Under the pieces are notes generated by a model. The model saw nothing but the letters and a program-made list of their open reading frames with translations, did not search any database and was not told where the DNA came from. Shown here one piece after another: positions 2,558 through 33,842 of a DNA stretch of 39,655 bases. Source of the DNA: a virus; UHGV virus genome UHGV-0213320; one strand, given 5' to 3'. Position numbers and translations under genes: made by a program. How positions within the stretch are numbered: position 1 is the stretch's first letter; each line of letters opens with the position of its first letter.

Positions 2558-3520
2558 ATGGGATTAGAGGTATTTGACCATTACGAATGTGACGGTCAGA
2601 TGGAGATAGAGGACATTGCCCCGGAACGGCGGCTCACCCATCTGTCCCTGTTCAGCGGAATCGGGGGCCTGGATCTGGCTGCGGAATGGGCAGGATTTGA
2701 AAGTGTAGGACAATGTGAGTTTGCGGATTATCCTGCCAAGGTGCTGGAAAAACACTGGCCGGATGTGGAAAGGTGGAGAGATATACATGAGTTACACGCA
2801 GATGAGTTTATTCGCAGGACAGGAATCAGGGCAGGAGAACTTACCTGTATTTCAGGGGGCTTCCCCTGCCAGCCGCACTCGACTGCTGGACTGCGTAAGG
2901 CATCTAGTGATGAACGTGACCTGTGGCCGGAGTACCGGCGTGTCATTAGCGAAATTAAGCCGAGATGGGTTGTGGCTGAGAATGTACGGGGACTGCTGTC
3001 AAGCGAGGATGGACGGTTCTTTCGAGGAATACTCAGGGACTTTGCCGACCTGGGGTATGATGTTGGATGGTGTTGTTACCGGGCTGCCGATGTCGGAGCG
3101 GTACATCCCAGAGAGAGGGTTGGAATTATTGCCCACCTTAACATGCTCAGATACATGGAGCCAAAGGCTGAAATCAACGGAATGGAATGGGGAGAACAAG
3201 CACAGCATGACAATTACGCGAGCACTGATGCCGACATTGACGGCAAGCGCATGGAAAGGCGCATGCAGAAGCCAATACAGGGGAAACCGGAATGGTCACA
3301 TGACCAGTCCGTTGAATGCACTGAGGACTGGGAAAGACAGTCCAATATATTTGAACCCAAGCTACTGCGAAATTATCATGGGGTTCCCGGTGCGGTGGAC
3401 AGAATTAAGTGCCTCGGAAACGCAGTAGTGCCACAGCAGTTCTATCCGATTTTTAAGGGGATAGCGGAAATAGAACTGGAAAGCAAAACACTATATCGAT
3501 GTAAAGAAGGTGCAAAATGA
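2558..3520 (+). CDS. DNA (cytosine-5)-methyltransferase (orphan, phage-encoded)
   Basis: Motif I LFSGIGGLDLA, motif IV GGFPCQPHS (PCQ), motif VI ENVRGL, motif X GNAVVPQ. Strong RBS GGAGGAAG. Visibly higher GC than surrounding genes. Confidence 0.9.
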   Translation: MGLEVFDHYECDGQMEIEDIAPERRLTHLSLFSGIGGLDLAAEWAGFESVGQCEFADYPAKVLEKHWPDVERWRDIHELHADEFIRRTGIRAGELTCISGGFPCQPHSTAGLRKASSDERDLWPEYRRVISEIKPRWVVAENVRGLLSSEDGRFFRGILRDFADLGYDVGWCCYRAADVGAVHPRERVGIIAHLNMLRYMEPKAEINGMEWGEQAQHDNYASTDADIDGKRMERRMQKPIQGKPEWSHDQSVECTEDWERQSNIFEPKLLRNYHGVPGAVDRIKCLGNAVVPQQFYPIFKGIAEIELESKTLYRCKEGAK

Positions 3521-3750
3521 ATCTTAGTCCCACAATGATGCAGGTTACAGAACAAATGGAATTGCACGGTGAACTGATAAGATATCCTGGAGGATTTTGG
3601 TCTTGGCGAGACGTAGAAATCAAACGCAAGATTCCTGCATGGTATTGTGACGTGAAAACTCTTAGAGCACTTGGAAAAAGAGGGATTGTCAATCTTGATG
3701 AAACCAAGAAAATTTGTAAGCTAAAAACGCGATTTGGCAAAAGGAACTAA
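3517..3750 (+). CDS. Hypothetical protein
   Basis: 77-aa ORF coupled (ATGA overlap) to the methyltransferase stop. Confidence 0.35.
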   Translation: MNLSPTMMQVTEQMELHGELIRYPGGFWSWRDVEIKRKIPAWYCDVKTLRALGKRGIVNLDETKKICKLKTRFGKRN

Positions 3751-4555
3751 ACAAAACTATCTTAATGCCATACGAAGATTGCTGACAGAGATAAGCACAA
3801 AATCACTGGACCAGATGGATACCACTGATATTGATTGGTATTTATCGCGGTATGAAATTAGAAATGTATCTGCCGGGGGAAAGAAAAACCAGCCTAGTAC
3901 CTATAATAACGAGCGCAGATTTCTGTCAGCATTCTTCGCATGGATGCGCCTTGAAAAGCTTATTACAGATAATCCGATAGAGTCTATACCAGCTAAAAAA
4001 GTACCCATTAAACCAATTGATTACTACAGCCCAGAAGAATCTGCAAGGTTAAGGGATGCGTGCAAAAATATCCGTGAGAGAGCCTTGCTGGAGGTGCTTC
4101 GAAGTACTGGGGCCAGGATAGGGGAGATTGCAGAAATAACCCTGGACCAGATAGACATGAGAACAGGAGATGTATTAATTCAGGGGGAAAAAGGCGGTAG
4201 ATACCGTACTATATATTTGGATGATGATGCAAGATATTATTATGGCCTATACTTAGACAATCGGACAGATGATTGCCCATATATGTTTCCGCGTTCAAGG
4301 AAACCATATGGGAAAATGACTACTTGCGGTTTTCGAGCCATAATAAAATCCATAGGAAAAAGGGCAGGACTTACATGCAGGGTTTATCCGCACAAATCCA
4401 GAAAAACATTAGGAATGAATCTTAGAAATCACGGTGTAGAGATAGGAATTATACAGGAAATTTTTGGACATGCAAGTTCGGAAGTAACAATGAAATTTTA
4501 TGCTCAGACTGATAATAGAAGACTGCGTAGCATTAGGGAAAGGGTGGCAGTATAG
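3734..4555 (+). CDS. Small tyrosine site-specific recombinase (XerC/D- or FimB/E-like), probable TTG start
   Basis: Catalytic signature: RTGARIGEI (Arg I), HKSRKT (HxxR), GHASSEVTMKFY (catalytic Tyr). No N-terminal arm-binding domain (273 aa). The ORF overlaps the upstream gene, so the start is uncertain. Confidence 0.8.
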   Translation: MAKGTKQNYLNAIRRLLTEISTKSLDQMDTTDIDWYLSRYEIRNVSAGGKKNQPSTYNNERRFLSAFFAWMRLEKLITDNPIESIPAKKVPIKPIDYYSPEESARLRDACKNIRERALLEVLRSTGARIGEIAEITLDQIDMRTGDVLIQGEKGGRYRTIYLDDDARYYYGLYLDNRTDDCPYMFPRSRKPYGKMTTCGFRAIIKSIGKRAGLTCRVYPHKSRKTLGMNLRNHGVEIGIIQEIFGHASSEVTMKFYAQTDNRRLRSIRERVAV

Positions 4556-4560
4556 AAAGG

Positions 4561-4869
4561 ATGGACATGAGAACCAGATATAAAAACTACAGCGACTATG
4601 GTATTACTGATGATGAAGCTAAACGCATAAAAGAATACTGCCAGAACGCCATCGTAGAAGATAAGCTAACATTGTTCCAGTGTGCTATATCCTCGGCTCC
4701 TGGCCTGGAGGTGGAGATATACGAAAGCCTTGTAAGTAATATCGGATATGATAGGCTGAGCAAGCGAAAGAATATACCAATCAAACGGGATGACTTTTAC
4801 GGGTATCAAAGAAAAACGCTAGATGAATATAGGCGGTTGATGACATTGTTTGGGAGGTGGAAAGGATGA
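4561..4869 (+). CDS. Hypothetical protein
   Basis: 102-aa ORF with RBS GAAAGG 3 nt before the ATG. Confidence 0.4.
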   Translation: MDMRTRYKNYSDYGITDDEAKRIKEYCQNAIVEDKLTLFQCAISSAPGLEVEIYESLVSNIGYDRLSKRKNIPIKRDDFYGYQRKTLDEYRRLMTLFGRWKG

Positions 4870-5705
4870 CAATTAGTCATATAAAGGCAAGCGAGTTATT
4901 AAGAATTGGTGATAGCATCCGCAACCTAAGAAAAAATAAGGGATGGACGCAAAAGAAGCTTGCTATTGAAAGCGGAATTCACGAAGTACAGATACGCAGA
5001 TATGAAAATAATCATTCACTTCCTAGAGATGAACAATTGCAAAAACTTGCAACTGCTTTAGGGGTAGAAAACGATTTTTTCACACGAATGGAGAATATAT
5101 ATATGGCAGGAATTAATGATTACATAAGAATAGGGAAAAGAATAAAACAAGTAAGGATAAAATCAGGAATTTCACAAAAGGATATGGCAAAACGTCTCGG
5201 AATACCAGAATCCTCATGGTCAAATTATGAAAATGAAATTCGTGAACCAGGAATAAACTTGATATATTCGTTTTGTAAAGAAATGGGTATAACGATAGAT
5301 GAATTGATACGGATGGAGATTATGACAATTGGAGAAAACATTAAGAAATATCGCGAAAAAAAAGGATTGACACAAAAGGAATTGGGTGCAGCTTTAGGAT
5401 TAGCAGAAATTACAATTAGACAATACGAAAGCAACAAGCGTGAACCAAAATATGAAATCCTTTTTTCTATTGCAGATGCACTAAACATATCCATTGACGA
5501 TTTAATGAATATTGACACTGGAAAACGGATAAAAGAAGAAAGAGTAAAAGCAAAACTAACACAAGAAAAATTGGCCCAAAATGCGGAAATTTCTGTTTTC
5601 ACCTTACAGAAATATGAATCTGGGGACCGGAATCCTAAAATAGAACAATTAAAAAAAATAGCAAATGCTTTAGGAATATCAATTACTCAACTTAAGATTA
5701 TATAA
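4866..5705 (+). CDS. Transcriptional regulator made of four tandem HTH-XRE (Cro/C1-type) domains; candidate late-gene activator
   Basis: Four ~65-aa repeats each match the HTH_3 pattern (e.g. GWTQKKLAIESGIHEVQIRRYENN, GISQKDMAKRLGIPESSWSNYEN, GLTQKELGAALGLAEITIRQYESN, KLTQEKLAQNAEISVFTLQKYESG). RBS GGGAGGTGG before ATG 4866. Located immediately upstream of terS, the position where late activators usually sit. Confidence 0.8.
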   Translation: MTISHIKASELLRIGDSIRNLRKNKGWTQKKLAIESGIHEVQIRRYENNHSLPRDEQLQKLATALGVENDFFTRMENIYMAGINDYIRIGKRIKQVRIKSGISQKDMAKRLGIPESSWSNYENEIREPGINLIYSFCKEMGITIDELIRMEIMTIGENIKKYREKKGLTQKELGAALGLAEITIRQYESNKREPKYEILFSIADALNISIDDLMNIDTGKRIKEERVKAKLTQEKLAQNAEISVFTLQKYESGDRNPKIEQLKKIANALGISITQLKII

Positions 5706-5746
5706 AAAATGTGGGGACGATTTACATTACATGCGCATGGTAAAAT
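5706..5746 (+). promoter_or_regulatory. Candidate late promoter: 17-nt motif AAAATGTGGGGACGATT + 18-nt spacer + TAAAAT
   Basis: An identical 17-mer recurs at 15921-15937 with a 17-nt spacer and TAAAAT. Sits between the 4xHTH gene and terS, i.e. at the start of the late operon. Confidence 0.45.
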
Positions 5747-5789
5747 TAGTATAGGACTATTATGCCGTGTGAAGCACAAAGAATAAGGG

Positions 5790-6215
5790 GTGGTGATTGT
5801 GGCTTCCAGATTAACAGATAAACAGAAAAAGAAAATAATAGCTGATTATGTGGAATATGGAAGCTATCGTGCCACAGCAAAAAAATTCGGTGTTTCAGAT
5901 AACACAGTAAAAAACATATGCGCAAAAAGTGCAGATATTGCGCAGAAGTGCGCACAAAAAAAAGAACAGAACACAGCCGATATGTTGGCATATATGGATT
6001 CCAGGAAAGAACAAGCACAGGGTATTATTGATAAATATCTTGAAAAGCTGGCGGACCCGCATAAACTAGAAAATGCTACTATCTCCCAAATTGCAACAGC
6101 GATGGGGATAGTAGTTGATAAATTTATGGATAATACAAAAAAAGGAGAAAATGCAGAAGGAGTAACCATTTTGAATGATATACCAAAGCCGGGAAAGGGG
6201 AATGGTGATGCATGA
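5790..6215 (+). CDS. terS: Terminase small subunit
   Basis: 141 aa, N-terminal HTH-like segment (YRATAKKFGVSDNTVKN). Immediately upstream of and overlapping terL. GTG start (5790 or 5799) after AAGGGG. Confidence 0.65.
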   Translation: MVIVASRLTDKQKKKIIADYVEYGSYRATAKKFGVSDNTVKNICAKSADIAQKCAQKKEQNTADMLAYMDSRKEQAQGIIDKYLEKLADPHKLENATISQIATAMGIVVDKFMDNTKKGENAEGVTILNDIPKPGKGNGDA

Positions 6216-13848: not shown

Positions 13849-14247
13849 ATGGCAGATTTTGTAACTGCTGGTACACAGACTGTAGAAGTCAATGCAAGCG
13901 TTCTGTTTGCAGCCAACCGGATATATTCTTGCAATTGCCCAAACATAAGGCATGAGCCGCTTTCCGGTAGAGTGGTGTTACTTCCGGGATTATACCGTGT
14001 AGGTTTTAATGGTAATTTTTCAGCCGCAGCCGCAGGTGATGTTATCTTTGAAGTGCAGCAGGACGGCGAAGGTATTCCCGGAGCAAGAATCCAGAATACA
14101 GTCGCAGCTGGAGCAACAATCAATGGTGCAGCAACTGTAGAAGTGCGGGTATGTAAGCCATGTTGCGCTACGCTCTCGGTGAAAAACGTTGGAGCCGCAG
14201 CAGCAACGGTAACAGACTCTAACCTTGTTGTTAGCAGAATAGGTTAA
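13849..14247 (+). CDS. BclA C-terminal-domain-like (C1q/TNF jelly-roll-like) protein
   Basis: 132 aa. Pattern VEVNASVLF...LPGLYRVGFNGNFSAAAAGDVIFEVQQDG...ATINGAATVEV...LSVKNVGAAAATVTDSNLVVSRIG is typical of the exosporium BclA_C fold. Strong RBS AAGGAGG. Confidence 0.5.
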   Translation: MADFVTAGTQTVEVNASVLFAANRIYSCNCPNIRHEPLSGRVVLLPGLYRVGFNGNFSAAAAGDVIFEVQQDGEGIPGARIQNTVAAGATINGAATVEVRVCKPCCATLSVKNVGAAAATVTDSNLVVSRIG

Positions 14248-14830: not shown

Positions 14831-15791
14831 TATGATGAATTTGTACCGGACGCGTCAAAGCGTCTAGAATATCCCATCCTCTGTATATGCGGCTATGTAC
14901 CCTTGTATAAGGAACTCCGTATTTTCTGCACCAATTTGCTAGAGAGTTTGTAACGCCGTTTATTGTGAACATTAAATTCCTATTTGTATTATTTCCTTGT
15001 TGAACATCTGTAGCCAATCTACAATTTGATGGCTCATATCCCTTGGCATTATCAATTCTGTCAATAGATAAATTTTCTTCATACCCATTATTTAAAGCCC
15101 ATTTTTTAAATTTCTTATACTCTTTCCATTCTTGGCAAACAGCTATTCCTTTTTCTCCATACAAATAGTACGACTTGTGTTTTGGGCTATAGCAACGTAA
15201 CATCATATCATGCCATATACGATAAATCCGAGTATTTGTATCTCCGTGAGTAGTATTTCTTTCTATGGCAACCTCCCTGTTATAACAGCCACATGATTTT
15301 GTATGCCCACTAATTAAGTTTTGTTGATGAACAATTACCGAGTTTCCACAGTTGCATTTACATTCCCATAAGGTTTGTTTTCCGTTGCTTTTTCCGGCAT
15401 ACCGTATGGCTACTAAACGCCCAAAACGCTTCCCTGAAATATCATCCACTTTGGGAGTTCTGCAATTTTTACAGCATTTCTCGTAAGGAGATTTTAATGC
15501 GAACGCACTTGTTATAAATCGCGTTCCGCAGTCGCATGCACATTCGTATTGAACGTATGATTTTTTCATAGGAAGTTTTTTTAATATAGTCAATTTCCCT
15601 ATTTTTCTTCCTGATAGATTTTCCTTGTTTATGCAGCCGCATGATTTTGTTTTTCCGTCACGCAGATTCCCAGAATAGATTTTTCGCTCTGTTCCACATT
15701 GGCAGCGACATAAATAATACTGATTACCAAGGTATTCTAGGACTGTCCACATTCCAAACTTTTGACCTGTTAAATCAATTCTTTTTGTCAT
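14814..15791 (-). CDS. HNH(HNH_3)-like homing-endonuclease-type protein with three N-terminal zinc-ribbon repeats
   Basis: Start at the second Met (MTKRIDL) after RBS GGAAGGGG. Three repeats of L[ST]G[QRK][KR][FI]G.L.[VI]L...(Y/W).C.C.CG...........SCGC. C-terminal IYRIWHDMMLRC...YGEKGIAVCQEW...LSIDRIDNAKGYEPSNCRLAT..QQGNN matches the HNH_3/AP2-like module. Opposite strand to the structural genes. Confidence 0.7.
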   Translation of the reverse strand: MTKRIDLTGQKFGMWTVLEYLGNQYYLCRCQCGTERKIYSGNLRDGKTKSCGCINKENLSGRKIGKLTILKKLPMKKSYVQYECACDCGTRFITSAFALKSPYEKCCKNCRTPKVDDISGKRFGRLVAIRYAGKSNGKQTLWECKCNCGNSVIVHQQNLISGHTKSCGCYNREVAIERNTTHGDTNTRIYRIWHDMMLRCYSPKHKSYYLYGEKGIAVCQEWKEYKKFKKWALNNGYEENLSIDRIDNAKGYEPSNCRLATDVQQGNNTNRNLMFTINGVTNSLANWCRKYGVPYTRVHSRIYRGWDILDALTRPVQIHHKKAGS

Positions 15792-28037: not shown

Positions 28038-28501
28038 GTTTGAAAACTGATTATAAAAATGATAAATTTTCTGGAATGCGTAAATACAAAATTGAAACTG
28101 ATTCTGAAACCGGACTATCTACATTGGATGATAAAACCGAATATGTGGAGGTAGGGGACATATTCTCTGCTGATGATATCAATAATACAAATAAGGCCAT
28201 TAACAAGATAGAAGGAACAGTTAATGATATGATTGGGGCAATCAGGCTCGATTTCCCTAAAACTGGGTGGAGCACCCAGGCACCATATAAACAGACTGTA
28301 AACAATGCGGGTATAAATGATACGGATGTCCCAGTGCCAATGTTCGAGTATCCTGTCATTAATTCGGAACAGCAACAGAAAGACGTGGACAGAAGCGTGG
28401 GGTATATCACCGACATAACAACGAATAATGGATCAGTGACCATTACATGTAATTATAGGAAACCAACAGCAGATTTCATACTTGTATTGAAAGGAATATG
28501 A
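28034..28501 (+). CDS. Baseplate/tail-fibre-associated hypothetical protein
   Basis: 155-aa ORF, coupled. Confidence 0.4.
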   Translation: MSLKTDYKNDKFSGMRKYKIETDSETGLSTLDDKTEYVEVGDIFSADDINNTNKAINKIEGTVNDMIGAIRLDFPKTGWSTQAPYKQTVNNAGINDTDVPVPMFEYPVINSEQQQKDVDRSVGYITDITTNNGSVTITCNYRKPTADFILVLKGI

Positions 28502-28923
28502 CAATGAGAATCGGATTACCGTTTAAAGGAAGTGGGGTTGATGTGACCGGCCTAACCGCTACATCACCAAGAGTCAGAAAAGGAAAAACATTTTATGGAG
28601 CTGGGACTGATAATGAACAGTCTGGGACAATGCAAGATGTTGAATCGATTAATAAAAAGATGGACGTAAATGAAACATATAATATTACGCCTGGATACCA
28701 TGATGGAAATGATACATTCTTCCAAAACCTTGAAACATACAGAGGTGGATTTGTTGACCCTGGTCCTGGTAAACAGGTGATTGAAACAAAAGGAAAATAC
28801 GTAATGTATGATATTATTGTATTGGAAGTAAGCGGATTGCGACCGGAAGTGATAAAATATGGCGTGACTGTTGGTGAAGGTGAAGGGGCGGTAACTGGTA
28901 CATGGCAGGGTTTTGTAAGTTAG
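28498..28923 (+). CDS. Tail-fibre-region protein, paralog of the N-terminal half of the next gene
   Basis: Shared pattern GK..(E)..QTGT...PGY..G.....LET....GPG..Q......GKY...DI.......P.VIK.G..V...GPG.W.G.V with 28902-29843. Confidence 0.5.
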   Translation: MTMRIGLPFKGSGVDVTGLTATSPRVRKGKTFYGAGTDNEQSGTMQDVESINKKMDVNETYNITPGYHDGNDTFFQNLETYRGGFVDPGPGKQVIETKGKYVMYDIIVLEVSGLRPEVIKYGVTVGEGEGAVTGTWQGFVS

Positions 28924-29852: not shown

Positions 29853-30578
29853 ATGAATAACATAGAAAATATCCAAGAATATATACCTACTGTGTATGTT
29901 AATGACTCTGAGCCAGATTTGGATGAGACAAACTTAAACAAAACAGAACAGGCAATAAAACGGGTAACCGATGCAGCCAATAAAGCAATTGATGCATTAA
30001 AGCAACTGGACCGGGAGAAGTTAGCGTTATCTGCTATATCTAACGTATTATCTGATGCTACAGATAAGGTTCCATCATTGGCTTTAGCTAATACAATGCA
30101 GCTCGCGATTAATGACTTAAATACCAATTTGGGCGCGGAATTAGTGACTGGCGATATGTTATCCTATGCTCTTAGAATGAGTAGAGGATTTTACGTCATA
30201 CGAACTGACAATACGACTGCCAATACACCTAAAGACTATATGTCTGGATATATAGTCAAAAGATTTGACAATCCAAATCAGATAACAATTGTACTTTTTG
30301 AGTTAGGTAAAACCAAACCATATTATAACAGCTATAATGGTAGTGCTTGGTCTGGATGGGTTGCTGGTTTACAAGACTCCGATTTGGTCATAAATAGTCC
30401 CATAAAAAAGACAAAAGTAGCCCTGGAAAATGACAGGCTCTTGTTTTGGGTTTATACTGATGGAGATGCGATGATGAATGGTTATCGGGTAGACTTTAAT
30501 GGTGCGGAAAAGCGCATTTATTACGGAAAAATAACCAATGGCATTTACAGTAATATTGGTGGTACTACCTTAACGTAA
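29853..30578 (+). CDS. Tail fibre / receptor-binding protein with switchable C-terminal domain
   Basis: 241 aa, strong RBS AAGGAGG. C-terminal ~145 aa homologous to the inverted promoterless cassette at 30583-30990. The homology begins exactly at a 12-bp inverted repeat. Confidence 0.6.
   Translation: MNNIENIQEYIPTVYVNDSEPDLDETNLNKTEQAIKRVTDAANKAIDALKQLDREKLALSAISNVLSDATDKVPSLALANTMQLAINDLNTNLGAELVTGDMLSYALRMSRGFYVIRTDNTTANTPKDYMSGYIVKRFDNPNQITIVLFELGKTKPYYNSYNGSAWSGWVAGLQDSDLVINSPIKKTKVALENDRLLFWVYTDGDAMMNGYRVDFNGAEKRIYYGKITNGIYSNIGGTTLT
30119..30138 (+). repeat. Left inverted repeat of candidate invertible segment (AAATACCAATTTGGGCGCGG)
   Basis: Matches, in inverted orientation, AAATAGCAATTTAGCAGCGC at 30981-31000 (12-bp core with 1 mismatch). 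In the same codon phase in both ORFs. Confidence 0.5.
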
Positions 30579-30582
30579 TTGA

Positions 30583-31000
30583 TTATTTGATGTTACGAGA
30601 CACATCAAATGTAATATAGCCTTTATCCACCCCATCTACAAAAATCTGTACATAGTTTTGGGTATCATTAAGTTTGTTGACATACAAGGTCACTGCTTTA
30701 CCAGCGGATACTCCTGTGGTTTTGACCGCACTGGCAAAATCCGCGTCTTGAATAAAAGTGCTCCACCCAATCCAGTTGGTCGCCGAAGGCTTTCGGTTGG
30801 TATATACCCTGTTGGATGTGCTATCGTACAATACTATTGCAATATCATTACCCCGGCGGATAATCATCCCCTCCGAGTAAGTTGTAGGAGTATCAGATGT
30901 CTGTGACCCGGTACGTACATTACTAATCCCTTGAGGCGCTGACGCTGCATAAGTCAATATGCTGCCGACCACATCCGATTGCGCTGCTAAATTGCTATTT
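30583..31000 (-). other. Silent inverted alternative tail-fibre C-terminal cassette (Sv'-like) with right inverted repeat
   Basis: The minus-strand ORF lacks an RBS or native N-terminus (its 5' end reads through the antisense of gene 31034). Residues NLAAQSDVVGSILTYAASAPQG...WIGW...QDAD... align with NLGAELVTGDMLSYALRMSRG...WSGW...QDSD... of ORF 29853. Confidence 0.55.
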
Positions 31001-31033
31001 GCTATATAAAAACATACCCATGAAAGGAGTAAA

Positions 31034-31447
31034 ATGAACCAATTAAAACTATTAAACAACACAAAATACGACTTAATTACAAACGGGGTGGAAGAATCAG
31101 GCGATTACCTAACCCTGTCGTTTCTTCCCGTCCTAGATAATTTTGAAACGGTAGAATCCGAATTTAATCCGACAAATACAGAAAAAATTTACATACTTGG
31201 TTTGGACGGTCAGCCGATGGAAGTAAAAACCGGATTTACTCAGCTGGTTGAGATGCGCAAGAAAATGGATTATGTCATTTCAGCCGAAACAGTAAATACC
31301 GGAACCGAGGAAGAGCCGAATTATGAAACCAATGAAGTGAAGGATAGCATTATGGTTGTTAAACTTCGTAGGCCAGATATCCGGGATACAGTGCGTACAT
31401 TGCAAGATACAGTGGATGCAATAATTTTAAGTCAGCTGGAGGTGTAA
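31034..31447 (+). CDS. Hypothetical protein (XkdW-position)
   Basis: 137 aa, RBS GAAAGGAG, between the tail fibre and the XkdX-like gene. Confidence 0.4.
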   Translation: MNQLKLLNNTKYDLITNGVEESGDYLTLSFLPVLDNFETVESEFNPTNTEKIYILGLDGQPMEVKTGFTQLVEMRKKMDYVISAETVNTGTEEEPNYETNEVKDSIMVVKLRRPDIRDTVRTLQDTVDAIILSQLEV

Positions 31448-32372: not shown

Positions 32373-32394
32373 ATGCAACACGAAATGCAACACG
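32373..32394 (+). repeat. Direct repeats ATGCAACACG x2 (second pair at 32569-32588)
   Basis: Four copies of the 10-mer in two tandem pairs ~175 bp apart, in the lysin-integrase intergenic region. Candidate integrase arm-type sites. Confidence 0.45.
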
Positions 32395-32455
32395 GAGCCT
32401 ACAAACCGCATAAAACCGTTGTATTTTACGGGTCCGATTCCCGTCAGCAGCTTTT

Positions 32456-32505
32456 TCTTAAAACCTTGTAGATACGTAGAAAACAACGTATTTGCAAGGT
32501 TTTTT
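32456..32505. terminator. Bidirectional terminator hairpin (AAAACCTTGtagATACG...CGTATttgCAAGGTTTTTT)
   Basis: ~14-bp imperfect stem with an A-run on the 5' side and a T-run on the 3' side, between convergent lysin and integrase genes. Confidence 0.55.
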
Positions 32506-32568: not shown

Positions 32569-32588
32569 ATGCAACACGATGCAACACG
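32569..32588 (+). repeat. Second tandem pair of ATGCAACACG repeats
   Basis: See 32373-32394. Confidence 0.45.
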
Positions 32589-32605
32589 GAAAATATGCTA
32601 TTCTA

Positions 32606-33676
32606 TCACATAATAAACTTTTCAAAGTGTTTATTGATTTTTTTATTCTGCCGGACGGATTCCAGGTCAATCACATTCCTGTATACAGTTTTCATGATAT
32701 TGTCACTGGCCCATCCTCCCCGCTGCAATATATATTGGTCTGGTACACCTATGGCGTGCATAATGGATGCAGCATAATGCCGGAGGTCGTGAAAGCGAAA
32801 ATGCGGTACATCAATCTTTTTAAGCACCCGCCCAAATCTATGTGTGATATAATCCGGGTTCATGTCAACCAGCTTCCCTTTTTTGCCAGATATCCGGTCA
32901 ATTACAAAGGCTGGCATTTCTACGTCCCGTGTGCTGTCATCCGTCTTTGGCTGCTTGATATACCATTGATTGTCTGGTCCCTTGACCATATTGTCTCTTA
33001 CATGGATAATACGACCTTCTACATTTTTATCAGTAAGGGCGCTTATCTCTCCGCGTCTGAGTGGGCCAAATGCAGCCAGTAACACGGCTATCTCTAAATC
33101 TGTACCTTTGATAGCGTCTAACAGCTTTTTAATATCATTGTCATTGGGGCAGTATAAATCGGGGCGTTTTTTCTGTGGAAGCTTTACCTTTAAGGTTAAA
33201 TCAGGCGCAAACATTTCCAATGATGCGGATAACAGGCCATAGGCATTTCTAACTGTCTTGGGAGACAGTTGTTTTCCTGCCAAATCACTTACCCATATCT
33301 GTACAGATGGATTAGATAGCTCTGAGAGCCGTTTACGCCCAAATACGCCGTCAAAATACTGCCTTTGCATACCAACATACCCTCTAAGCGTAGAAGGGCT
33401 TAAAACTCCTTTTTTGACGCTCAAATAACGTTCGATAGCTTGACTCACTGTTATATCTTCGTCCTCTTCCTCTTCCGGTACGTTGTATTGCTCTATAGGC
33501 TTGTCCTTCATGTCTAATTTCCATCTGGTAGCCATCTCCTTTGCCTCTTTACGTGATGGAGCAACAAAGCTTTTGTAATGCCGTTTTCCTTTATCATCTG
33601 TATACAGATACACTTGCACTCTGACATTTCCAGACGGCAGTACTCCTTTTTTCTTTTTCGGGGCTTTTGTAGTCAT
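32606..33676 (-). CDS. int: Tyrosine integrase (phage integrase family)
   Basis: Start MTTKAPKKKKG after RBS GGAGGAAAG. N-terminal SAM-like/arm domain, catalytic RRGEISAL (Arg), HRFGRVL / HDLRHYAAS (HxxR), GGWASDNIMKTVYRNV (Tyr). 356 aa. Confidence 0.9.
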   Translation of the reverse strand: MTTKAPKKKKGVLPSGNVRVQVYLYTDDKGKRHYKSFVAPSRKEAKEMATRWKLDMKDKPIEQYNVPEEEEDEDITVSQAIERYLSVKKGVLSPSTLRGYVGMQRQYFDGVFGRKRLSELSNPSVQIWVSDLAGKQLSPKTVRNAYGLLSASLEMFAPDLTLKVKLPQKKRPDLYCPNDNDIKKLLDAIKGTDLEIAVLLAAFGPLRRGEISALTDKNVEGRIIHVRDNMVKGPDNQWYIKQPKTDDSTRDVEMPAFVIDRISGKKGKLVDMNPDYITHRFGRVLKKIDVPHFRFHDLRHYAASIMHAIGVPDQYILQRGGWASDNIMKTVYRNVIDLESVRQNKKINKHFEKFIM

Positions 33677-33842
33677 TTTTCTTTCCTCCTTCAATTGATT
33701 TTCCTGAAAATAGGTATAAAAAATACAGCTCCGCAAATATCTTGCAAAGCCGCCCCGAAGATGGTACAATATAAGTGCGAATTATAGTGCATATCTTCGG
33801 GTATGTAGGCCGGTTCCTGTTGGCGCAGGGGCCGGTTTTATT

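Follow-up and report, generated by a model that had tools for sequence, protein, structure and literature searches.

The closest described systems to the locus reported here are the Rin shufflon and the unflanked inversion systems of Bifidobacterium prophages. Rin, found in prophages of Bifidobacterium and Eggerthella, uses an 11-bp asymmetric crossover site inside a receptor-binding protein (RBP) gene and an arm-less XerD-like tyrosine recombinase, and rin adjoins an array of three to five tandem cassettes (PMC6109161, PMC8778435). The second inversion locus of the Bifidobacterium tRNA-Met prophages 689b-1/Bb423phi2 has an 8-bp crossover sequence (Mavrich et al. 2018, PMC6109161) and, because no recombinase flanks it, a trans-acting invertase has been proposed (PMC6109161). 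The window analysed here, the whole 39,655-nt stretch of UHGV virus genome UHGV-0213320, probably carries a switch through which a temperate siphophage of gut Lachnospiraceae (Enterocloster, Dorea) would exchange its receptor-binding tip by site-specific inversion. As a host-range switch it is of a known type, here in a new phage group and without an adjacent recombinase. As in Rin, the RBP joins a constant N-terminus to exchangeable cassettes at the C-terminus, with a short site at the junction (a 12-bp core in all relatives), some cassettes are H-type lectins, and the candidate recombinase is an arm-less XerC/D-like tyrosine recombinase. Unlike Rin, there are two cassettes here (three cores in relative L142), the candidate recombinase lies about 26 kb away, the hosts are Firmicutes, and the rix site of Rin, TTCCCTAACCC, differs in sequence from the core. 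The 689b-1/Bb423phi2 locus shares with this one a very short crossover sequence and the lack of a flanking recombinase; however, its site is CAGGGTTA and the site here is AAATAGCAATTT, the host phylum differs and the genes are unrelated. It is also represented by one genome pair; the present one is known from dozens of contexts, with a candidate recombinase and with evidence that segments are exchanged between phages.

The switches of Mu (Gin/G), P1 (Cin/C), e14 (Pin) and p15B (Min) have 26-bp dyad sites, a Fis-dependent enhancer and a co-inverted assembly gene, U/U′. There, as would be the case here, inversion swaps the C-terminal specificity part of the fibre behind a constant N-terminus and thereby changes host range. 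However, the adjacent serine invertase of those systems has no counterpart here, U/U′ is missing from a segment made up of two C-terminal cassettes only, and in place of 26-bp dyad gix-type sites 12 bp are conserved between varying flanks. An earlier note on this DNA had likened the locus to Mu Gin/G. The constant N-terminus with two inverted C-terminal cassettes holds up, both in the swapped cassettes of relatives and in an in-silico flip, but the locus is an analogue of Mu Gin/G and not a relative.

The R64 shufflon (Rci, sfx) is comparable in that a tyrosine-type recombinase is suspected here and a short core is conserved while its flanks are not, so that site asymmetry would dictate inversion only. 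The comparison with sfx sites made in the earlier note is apt to this extent, because conservation stops at the edges of the 12-bp core and the flanking sequence on both sides changes with the lineage. R64 varies pilV, the adhesin of a conjugative plasmid, by means of several segments and an rci gene next to them, whereas a fibre with two sites is the target here; sfx has one conserved arm and a 7-bp spacer, and the present core is unrelated to it in sequence and length. One recombinase acting on distant sites with a short common consensus would also recall the global trans-acting invertases of Bacteroides (Mpi, Tsr family), although these flip host-chromosome promoters or outer-surface genes rather than phage fibre coding sequence, and Mpi is a serine recombinase. 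Literature searches returned no account of such a system in phages of Enterocloster or Lachnospiraceae, and blastn of the locus against 50,697 GenBank phages gave zero matches.

Organization of the fibre locus

Table 1. Features of the fibre locus and two recombinase genes in the window
Feature	Position	Strand	Description	Database match
Receptor-binding (tail fibre) gene, predicted	29853-30578	+	241 aa	
Constant N-terminal part of fibre protein	29853..30118	+	aa 1-89, predicted helical stalk	
Left crossover core	30119..30130	+	Variant AAATACCAATTT, G->C at position 6; encodes N-T-N-L, not N-S-N-L	
Cassette A	30131..30578	+	Expressed variable C-terminus, two beta-rich domains	
Mechanical minus-strand ORF	30583-31062	-	159 aa, tail-to-tail with the fibre ORF	
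Cassette B	30586..30988/30999	-	Silent alternative C-terminus; lacks its own start codon, RBS and promoter	
Right crossover core	30989..31000	-	Canonical AAATAGCAATTT, 34 nt upstream of the ATG of the next gene	
5′ extension of the minus-strand ORF	31001..31062	-	Non-coding; antisense to RBS and start of the gene at 31034	
Downstream gene	31034..31447	+	137 aa, phrog_12931, right constant flank	PHROG
XerC/D/XerA-like tyrosine recombinase (Y-rec)	3734..4555	+	Candidate trans-acting invertase, 5′-truncated in the window	Pfam PF00589, PF13495
Phage integrase	32606..33769	-	387 aa, attP around 32430-32452	Pfam and PHROG integrase

The fibre ORF and the minus-strand ORF, whose stop codons are separated by 4 nt, have the coordinates and features that the earlier note gave them (Table 1). 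The fibre protein is taken to be a receptor-binding protein by its predicted fold. In the AF2 model, helices span residues 25-72 and 76-93, and the second stops at the junction. Residues 1-88 are 100% identical in 11 of 12 IMG/VR relatives and 98.9% identical in L012, while in these same relatives all fibre sequence past the core differs. Neither window cassette was matched in Pfam, PHROGs or NCBIfam; among other cassettes, some have matches to H-type lectin or CBM_5_12. No exact protein match was retrieved for the window fibre because of a single S->T difference, P0001 being the same protein with the canonical core.

The C-terminal domains of the two ORFs are homologous in inverted orientation (BLASTP E=2e-14, 35% identity, aa 90-190 vs 22-119). 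From this span it follows that homology begins exactly at N-T-N-L / N-S-N-L, which bears out the claim that it starts at the repeat. The distal domain of Cassette B is expressed in other fibres (84% identity in P0085 and 62% in P0027), and the entire cassette is present in identical form in L082 and L069.

With an open frame of 159 aa, parts of which are annotated by gene callers, the minus-strand ORF could be imagined as an independently expressed gene, such as a fibre chaperone or a second fibre. This is hardly credible, given that its first 21 codons are non-coding and antisense to the RBS and ATG of the gene at 31034. The same region has a 1-nt insertion in L008/L009, which shifts the frame, and a 12-nt shift in L007, with the cassette frame unharmed in each case, and conservation starts exactly at the core. 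Promoter-like sites within the invertible segment are no commoner than in shuffles, in line with the description of the ORF as promoterless, and no terminator was found in the segment. The downstream gene, 91-98% identical in relatives, must be transcribed through the invertible segment, in which Cassette B is best read as a silent tip.

Crossover cores and segment orientation

The 12-bp near-identical inverted repeat reported for the window is confirmed, with 11/12 positions matching between 30119-30130 (AAATACCAATTT) and the minus strand of 30989-31000 (AAATAGCAATTT), and it extends to 23 nt at 78%. Both copies have the same codon phase when read from the sequence, as had been stated, and in-silico inversion of 30119-31000 yields an uninterrupted, in-frame fibre of 227 aa, so that inversion would indeed fuse the N-terminus to the other C-terminus. 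Sites with up to one mismatch to the 12-mer occur three times in the window against 1.0 expected, a count reached in 11 of 100 shuffles. The genome-wide search for further sites gave a near-core, AAATAGGAATTT, at 14974-14985, which was rejected as an extra site since the count is within chance expectation. Nucleotide identity of the repeat is 10/12 over the first four aligned codons and 11/12 over the core, which does not surpass the identity of other conserved 12-nt stretches of the cassettes. Judged by sequence statistics, the window is undecisive on its own, and significance is supplied by its relatives.

All relatives have the exact 12-bp AAATAGCAATTT twice, in inverted orientation, the outer flanks being constant and the inner ones variable, and every fetched IMG/VR and genome relative has AAATAGCAATTT at the left position. 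The variant AAATACCAATTT occurs elsewhere only in the P0002 contigs L223-L226. About 40 distinct flank contexts with the exact 12-mer as an inverted pair were counted in 826 kb of fetched loci; conservation is limited to the 12 bp, and on either side the sequence varies from lineage to lineage. Conserved T residues in the outer flank at -10, -9 and -6 were left unused as site positions; they are probably compositional, because the right flanks are antisense to A-rich leaders.

As assembled, relatives carry the segment both ways, with breakpoints at the cores. Between L008 and L011, a 464-bp segment reaches 95.7% identity in inverted alignment and 54% in direct alignment, and its flanks are 100% and 98.9% identical. 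L010 and L015, a prophage of an E. hominis isolate, agree with this picture: L008/L010 and L011/L015 hold the same two cassettes with positions swapped at the 12-bp cores, which upholds the invertible architecture originally proposed. Silent cassettes are also found elsewhere as expressed C-termini, joined exactly at N-S-N-L. The silent cassette of L001 equals P0090 (100% over 187 aa), that of L011 equals P0058 (100%) and that of L009 is 96% identical to P0110; P0098 and P0005 are likewise 100% identical over 170 aa. Seven to nine cassette clusters occur in both positions.

Nine contig termini are set by the core to the base, six contigs ending 54-55 nt from the first core base and three beginning exactly there. 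This pattern is attributed to a k=55 assembly graph, which breaks where core plus cassette meets two flanks in one sample. Contig termini are thus the evidence from which within-sample heterogeneity of orientation is inferred.

Identical core-bounded segments are present in unrelated phage backbones, where the core and 100% identical cassettes adjoin unrelated outer flanks (25-38% identity), and homology to the foreign contexts L069 and L082 ends exactly at the outer edge of the right core. In L069, where the segment is displaced, Pfam gave no match for the giant protein beside it.

It could be argued that inversion is not programmed at all, and that the minus-strand cassette is a fossil or a by-product of homologous recombination or modular exchange, the 12-bp identity reflecting a conserved N-S-N-L at a domain boundary. 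The window repeat is no more similar than the remaining A/B homology and its count is not significant, the fusion of the N-terminus to Cassette B has never been seen, and a second mosaic boundary inside the cassettes, at a ..D[AS]D[FL].. linker, makes it clear that homologous exchange operates too. This alternative is nevertheless very improbable. The right core, non-coding in the resident state, is perfectly conserved in about 40 contexts, synonymous positions included; the same segment lies in both orientations between the nearly identical flanks of L008 and L011; and neither the base-precise contig termini nor the end of homology between unrelated backbones at the core edge fits such an account. 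Programmed inversion at the cores is the preferred reading. A diversity-generating retroelement was also rejected, as no RT domain was found in the scanned ORFs and the cassettes differ by whole domains, not by adenine-directed substitutions.

Candidate recombinases

As the earlier note had held, a serine invertase is lacking: PF00239 is absent from the 34 window ORFs scanned, and no serine recombinase was found near the switch in any other lineage. The best tblastn match to Hin (an approximate query sequence) had E=0.02 over 37 aa; it lies at 13888-13998 within a 132-aa ORF without a Pfam domain and was rejected as a serine invertase. More generally, the 2.5-10 kb around the switch are free of recombinase genes in every lineage, except for the window lineage's own integrase.

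The small tyrosine recombinase and the integrase had been named as candidates. Being the sole recombinase within 3 kb of the switch in the window lineage, the integrase might be thought to serve as the invertase as well. Its att core, GGGTCCGATTCCCGTCAGCAGCT, resembles a tRNA 3′ end, with ATGCAACACG arm repeats on both sides, and homology to the E. hominis prophage junction stops at 32452. Because the att core is unrelated to the inversion core, as are the arms, this second role is very unlikely; in addition, the same core occurs in further lineages without an integrase in the surrounding 10 kb, as well as in lineages whose integration site is elsewhere.

The small tyrosine recombinase (Y-rec) is the better candidate of the two by co-occurrence, although it is 5′-truncated here. 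Its family has all catalytic residues (R, K, HxxR, H, Y), and the gene, about 26 kb from the switch in the window, adjoins packaging genes. Y-rec and the switch share a contig in at least 14 IMG/VR contigs with at least four fibre contexts, and Y-rec is on 4 of the 6 long contigs found by the core pattern alone. From this co-occurrence among partly related phages, the invertase would on balance probably be the phage's own arm-less XerC/D-like tyrosine recombinase, acting in trans.

The competing possibility is that inversion is real and that a recombinase encoded by the host or a co-resident element, not the phage XerC/D-like enzyme, acts in trans on all core-bearing phages. This is unlikely, though of the alternatives it carries appreciable weight. 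The identical 12-bp core is found in phages of different backbones, none with an adjacent recombinase, and among the best 80 loci listed Y-rec did not turn up on P0053-type 37-kb contigs or on two long contigs bearing a core pair. The cultured phage phiCs5676-1 has a 54%-identical Y-rec homologue and no AAATAGCAATTT. Global invertases that act in trans, Mpi among them, have been described (as cited in PMC6109161). Against this, Y-rec and the switch occur together with several fibre types on the shared contigs counted above, and truncation of Y-rec coincides with a fixed orientation and unbroken contigs. The phage's own Y-rec is therefore retained as the candidate invertase.

phiCs5676-1 is the only cultured phage with a Y-rec homologue. 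A 16-nt inverted repeat with the same codon phase in its genome (12801/13912) was set aside as a possible switch, as no protein homology supports it (E=2.3).

State of the window copy

The window has neither two identical cores nor an intact recombinase. Its left core carries the G->C change, and its Y-rec has 273 aa against 345-348 aa in the family, without the conserved 75-aa N-terminal extension; a TAA lies at 3722-3724 and homology to relatives runs from 3722/3723. The sub-lineage with truncated Y-rec comprises the window and 14 contigs carrying P0001, all with Cassette A expressed. The truncated gene and the fibre are together on one Logan contig of 41,897 nt, and the truncated gene is linked to P0001 samples via a 77-aa ORF. 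Samples and contigs with P0138, a 348-aa Y-rec, show zero overlap with P0001 samples.

Contigs of 40-42 kb from the truncated sub-lineage pass straight through the switch. Among contigs with full-length Y-rec, 3 of 7 break at the core, and both orientations are found among their relatives. The A/B pair has Cassette A expressed in all 15 contigs and in the window, and a fusion of the N-terminus to Cassette B is absent among 5.8 billion proteins; flipping of the window's own segment is thus undocumented. Since the recombinase is without its conserved N-terminal 75 aa, the left core is altered and the truncated sub-lineage is always A-expressed, the window switch may well be frozen with Cassette A expressed. 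A co-resident prophage with an intact recombinase could complement a switch frozen in this way.

Proposed mechanism and implications

In the proposed mechanism, the fibre gene would consist of a constant helical N-terminus, the 12-bp core AAATAGCAATTT encoding N-S-N-L, and a variable two-domain tip, with a second, promoterless tip placed tail-to-tail behind a second, inverted core. Recombination of core with core would flip a segment of 0.46-1.0 kb and fuse the alternative tip in frame, and transcription would run on into the downstream lysis genes. The cores might also permit whole core-bounded segments to be exchanged between phage genomes by a site-specific route, a suggestion made with less assurance than that of the recombinase. 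More tentatively still, the core could be a docking site for recombinase-mediated cassette exchange, at which a trans-acting XerC/D-like recombinase both flips the segment and swaps tip pairs between unrelated Lachnospiraceae phages or prophages in one cell, loss of its N-terminal domain freezing one state.

The 12-bp core offers a simple search key by which receptor-binding genes, with their alternative alleles, can be found in phages of Lachnospiraceae, and together with the 348-aa recombinase it would make a compact candidate tool for swapping phage tips. The truncated sub-lineage provides a natural negative control. For thousands of uncultured temperate phages of gut Clostridia, the chief gap in knowledge concerns host range. 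If each phage doubled its receptor repertoire by such a switch, the broad or shifting host ranges in gut metagenomes would be easier to explain, and the switch would also account for assemblies of such phages breaking at the fibre gene. The effect would be larger if the same sites let unrelated phages swap ready-made tips; if cassette exchange of this kind is true, the phage community would draw on a common pool of no fewer than 40 tip families, an economy of host range resembling that of integrons.

The fibre gene and its inverted cassette

The stop codons of the fibre ORF and of the minus-strand ORF face each other, 4 nt apart, and the two products are homologous in their C-termini (BLASTP, E=2e-14). 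The alignment opens at residue 90 (N-T-N-L) of the plus-strand protein and residue 22 (N-S-N-L) of the minus ORF, at a 12-bp inverted repeat (the core) that matches at 11/12 positions, or at 78 % when extended to 23 nt. Both copies are in the same codon phase, and inversion of 30119–31000 in silico yields an uninterrupted protein of 227 aa. The earlier note's observation of tail-to-tail cassettes, with homology starting at the repeat and an in-frame fusion upon inversion, is thus confirmed. Taken by itself, the window gives no strong statistical case for the repeat: allowing one mismatch, the 12-mer occurs three times versus one expected, and other conserved stretches of the expressed cassette (A) and the silent one (B) are as similar.

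Features of the window at the switch, its candidate recombinases and neighbouring genes
Feature	Coordinates	Strand	Remark
C5 cytosine DNA methylase	2558–3520		
77-aa ORF	3517–3750		
XerC/D/XerA-like tyrosine recombinase (Y-rec)	3734–4555		All catalytic residues present
282-aa protein	4857–5705		Four tandem HTH_3 (Xre-type) domains
HNH endonuclease, 343 aa	14814–15845	−	phrog_374, E=2e-96
Near-core AAATAGGAATTT	14974–14985		Inside HNH endonuclease gene
ORF upstream of tail protein	28498–28923		
Tail protein, 313 aa	28902–29843		Upstream of fibre
Fibre ORF, 241 aa	29853–30578	+	ORF reading
Left core	30119–30130	+	
Linker boundary in cassette A	30360–30400		
Minus-strand ORF, 159 aa	30583–31062	−	ORF reading
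Right core	30989–31000	−	
ATGCAACACG repeats	32376–32398, 32570–32590		
attP core GGGTCCGATTCCCGTCAGCAGCT	32430–32452		tRNA-3′-end-like
Hairpin	32460–32503		Strong; near attP

The locus was compared in 14 contigs, 12 from IMG/VR and one each from an Enterocloster hominis genome (CLA-SR-H021) and a Dorea MAG. Flanking genes are mostly 91–100 % identical to those of the window and fibre residues 1–88 are 98.9–100 % identical, with the segment between the repeats variable in length (464–1041 bp) and content in all 14. The exact 12-mer AAATAGCAATTT closes the constant part of the fibre in 14/14 relatives, and a second, inverted copy lies 34–46 nt ahead of the next gene in each; outer flanks of these cores are constant and inner flanks variable. 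Because indels occur immediately outside the right core in three relatives (L007, L008 and L009), the 5′ part of the minus ‘ORF’ is non-coding. The downstream gene at 31034 has its RBS and ATG on the opposite strand of this stretch.

Evidence for inversion

Two cassettes are common to contigs L008/L010 and L011/L015, with their positions swapped. Aligned with its L011 counterpart, the 464-bp segment of L008 shows 95.7 % identity in inverted and 54 % in direct orientation, between flanks of 100 and 98.9 % identity. Among 179 cassette sequences, silent cassettes reappear as expressed C-termini with the junction exactly at N-S-N-L (e.g. 100 % over 187 aa, 100 % over 78 aa, 96 % over 104 aa and 100 % over 170 aa), and 7–9 cassette clusters, among at least 40 families, are found in both positions. 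Additionally, six contigs terminate 54–55 nt from the first base of the core and three start exactly at that base. In a k=55 de Bruijn graph, one cassette with two outer flanks in a sample would give the node comprising the core and 43 nt of cassette two incoming edges, and the observed termini are at the positions so predicted, which is indirect evidence for coexisting orientations within samples. Swapped cassettes, recurring silent cassettes and contig termini support the proposed invertible fibre-specificity switch for the phage family as a whole.

Candidate recombinases

No serine recombinase is present in the window, as the earlier note had stated. Of the two enzymes it named instead, the integrase is an unlikely invertase, since neither its tRNA-like att core, located via a prophage junction in E. 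hominis (window 32452), nor its arm repeats resemble the inversion core. The ATGCAACACG repeats on both sides of the attP core are presumably the integrase arm sites. Apart from this integrase of the window's lineage, no recombinase gene was found within 2.5–10 kb of the switch in any lineage.

The other candidate, Y-rec, is the stronger one. At least 14 IMG/VR contigs, from at least four fibre contexts, carry both the switch and a member of its family; these include 4/6 long contigs retrieved by the core-pair pattern alone. However, in scans that each listed at most 80 loci the gene was not seen on P0053-type contigs, and a cultured C. scindens phage that lacks the core encodes a homologue of 54 % identity; the Y-rec family is therefore only the probable invertase. 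This phage, Clostridium phage phiCs5676-1 (OR574845), carries a 16-nt inverted repeat (12801–12816/13912–13927, 88 %) in the same codon phase (I-I-E-K/T-N), linking the end of a minor tail protein gene with a reverse-oriented 104-aa ORF and adjoined by an IS200-type transposase. This could be a different switch.

Family members of Y-rec are 345–348 aa long, and their conserved N-terminal 75 aa run into a SAM-like core-binding domain. The window has a TAA at 3722–3724 that closes the frame, and homology to relatives starts at 3722/3723, a mosaic junction, with the methylase and 77-aa ORF in place of the 5′ 75 codons. The same arrangement is found in 18 public contigs, and in a lineage carrying the window's fibre with the canonical core. 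Truncated Y-rec and fibre are on one Logan contig, SRR15852991_10994; in other samples common to both they are on separate or sister-run contigs. Cassette A is expressed throughout the truncated sub-lineage (the window and 14 contigs), the 40–42 kb contigs of which cross the switch without a break, and no fusion of the constant N-terminus to cassette B was found among 5.8 billion sequences. Among contigs with full-length Y-rec, 3/7 break at a core, and relatives of these show both orientations. The correlation of truncation with fixed orientation supports the assignment of Y-rec and suggests that flipping has been lost in the window's sub-lineage. The left core of the window also has a G to C change at position 6 (S to T), seen elsewhere only in P0002 contigs in all sequences examined, which would further hinder recombination if the base lies within the strand-exchange overlap. 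The window's copy is probably a frozen derivative; a co-resident prophage could still supply an intact recombinase in trans.

Elsewhere in the window, the four-HTH_3 gene sits between the recombinase and terminase genes and is missing from relatives such as L308. The HNH protein, encoded on the opposite strand amid the head-gene module, is possibly a homing endonuclease; the near-core within its gene is within chance expectation.

Fibre tips and transcription

Among the other cassettes are matches to H-type lectin or CBM_5_12, and relatives are named ‘pyocin knob domain’ or ‘baseplate component’ by their sources. Neither a terminator nor an excess of promoters was found within the invertible segment; transcription of the downstream lysis genes thus passes through the segment whichever way it faces. 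The cassettes themselves have a second mosaic boundary, at a ..[QTN][DN][AS]D[FL].. linker joining proximal and distal domains, at equivalent positions in other cassettes and with an invariant D177 in the cassette alignment. Cassette A combines a P0002-like proximal with a P0007-like distal domain, and the distal domain of cassette B recurs in proteins P0027, P0061, P0085 and P0123. Over its N-terminal ~150 aa, the 313-aa tail protein shares ~33 % identity with a translation of the DNA directly upstream, a region coinciding with ORF 28498–28923; by this similarity the two are apparently tandem paralogues.

Possible movement of the segment between phages

Across the 826 kb of DNA fetched, inverted pairs of the exact core were found in ~40 distinct flank contexts, among them those of phages with fibres of 382 aa (an E. 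aldenensis prophage) and 1045 aa. Cassettes 100 % identical over 120 nt are joined at the core to outer flanks only 25–38 % identical, the random level. The window's entire A/B segment is also found behind the 1045-aa fibre in contig L082. In L069 (Logan ERR12528308_3969), the segment is complete, both cores included, at positions 4976–5857; it is 99.2 % identical to window 30101–31000, placed 40 nt past the stop and hairpin of an unrelated 2659-aa gene without a Pfam match and followed by aroD and nrdR. Homology to the window stops at the outer edge of the core, and both tips are silent there because a TGA just upstream closes the cassette frame. Such junctions suggest that core-bounded segments move between genomes, for which a double site-specific crossover (cassette exchange) could account.

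In L223–L226 (P0002 contigs), a single segment, comprising a variant left core, an A′ cassette and a silent ‘GNKLSKYY’ cassette, meets at least two different downstream flanks at its right core, so that the core is exactly where synteny between these phages breaks. Contig L142 (IMG/VR 2595698222_000001) has three cores, one forward and two inverted, at 2316, 2787 and 4472, which suggest a three-cassette version of the switch; this 76-kb contig also encodes a Y-rec homologue of 61 % identity.

Relation to known systems

The functional logic is that of Mu G and P1 C. However, the features that define that family are lacking: the switch has neither dyad sites nor a co-inverted assembly gene, and no serine invertase is encoded next to it. 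Most similar among the systems described are those of Bifidobacterium prophages. Their Rin shufflon has RBP cassettes, an 11-bp site and a tyrosine invertase; unlike in the switch here, rin is adjacent and several cassettes lie in tandem (PMC6109161). A second Bifidobacterium prophage locus undergoes a ~500-bp inversion at an 8-bp sequence with no flanking recombinase (PMC6109161). Rin is also found in Eggerthella prophages (PMC8778435), and tail fibres are one target of gene-altering inversions in a systematic survey (PMC9881135). For phages of Enterocloster or of Lachnospiraceae, no published account of the switch, the core or the recombinase was found. The kind of system is known; what is unusual is the remoteness of the candidate recombinase, the sharing of a 12-bp core by unrelated phages and the signs of whole-segment exchange.
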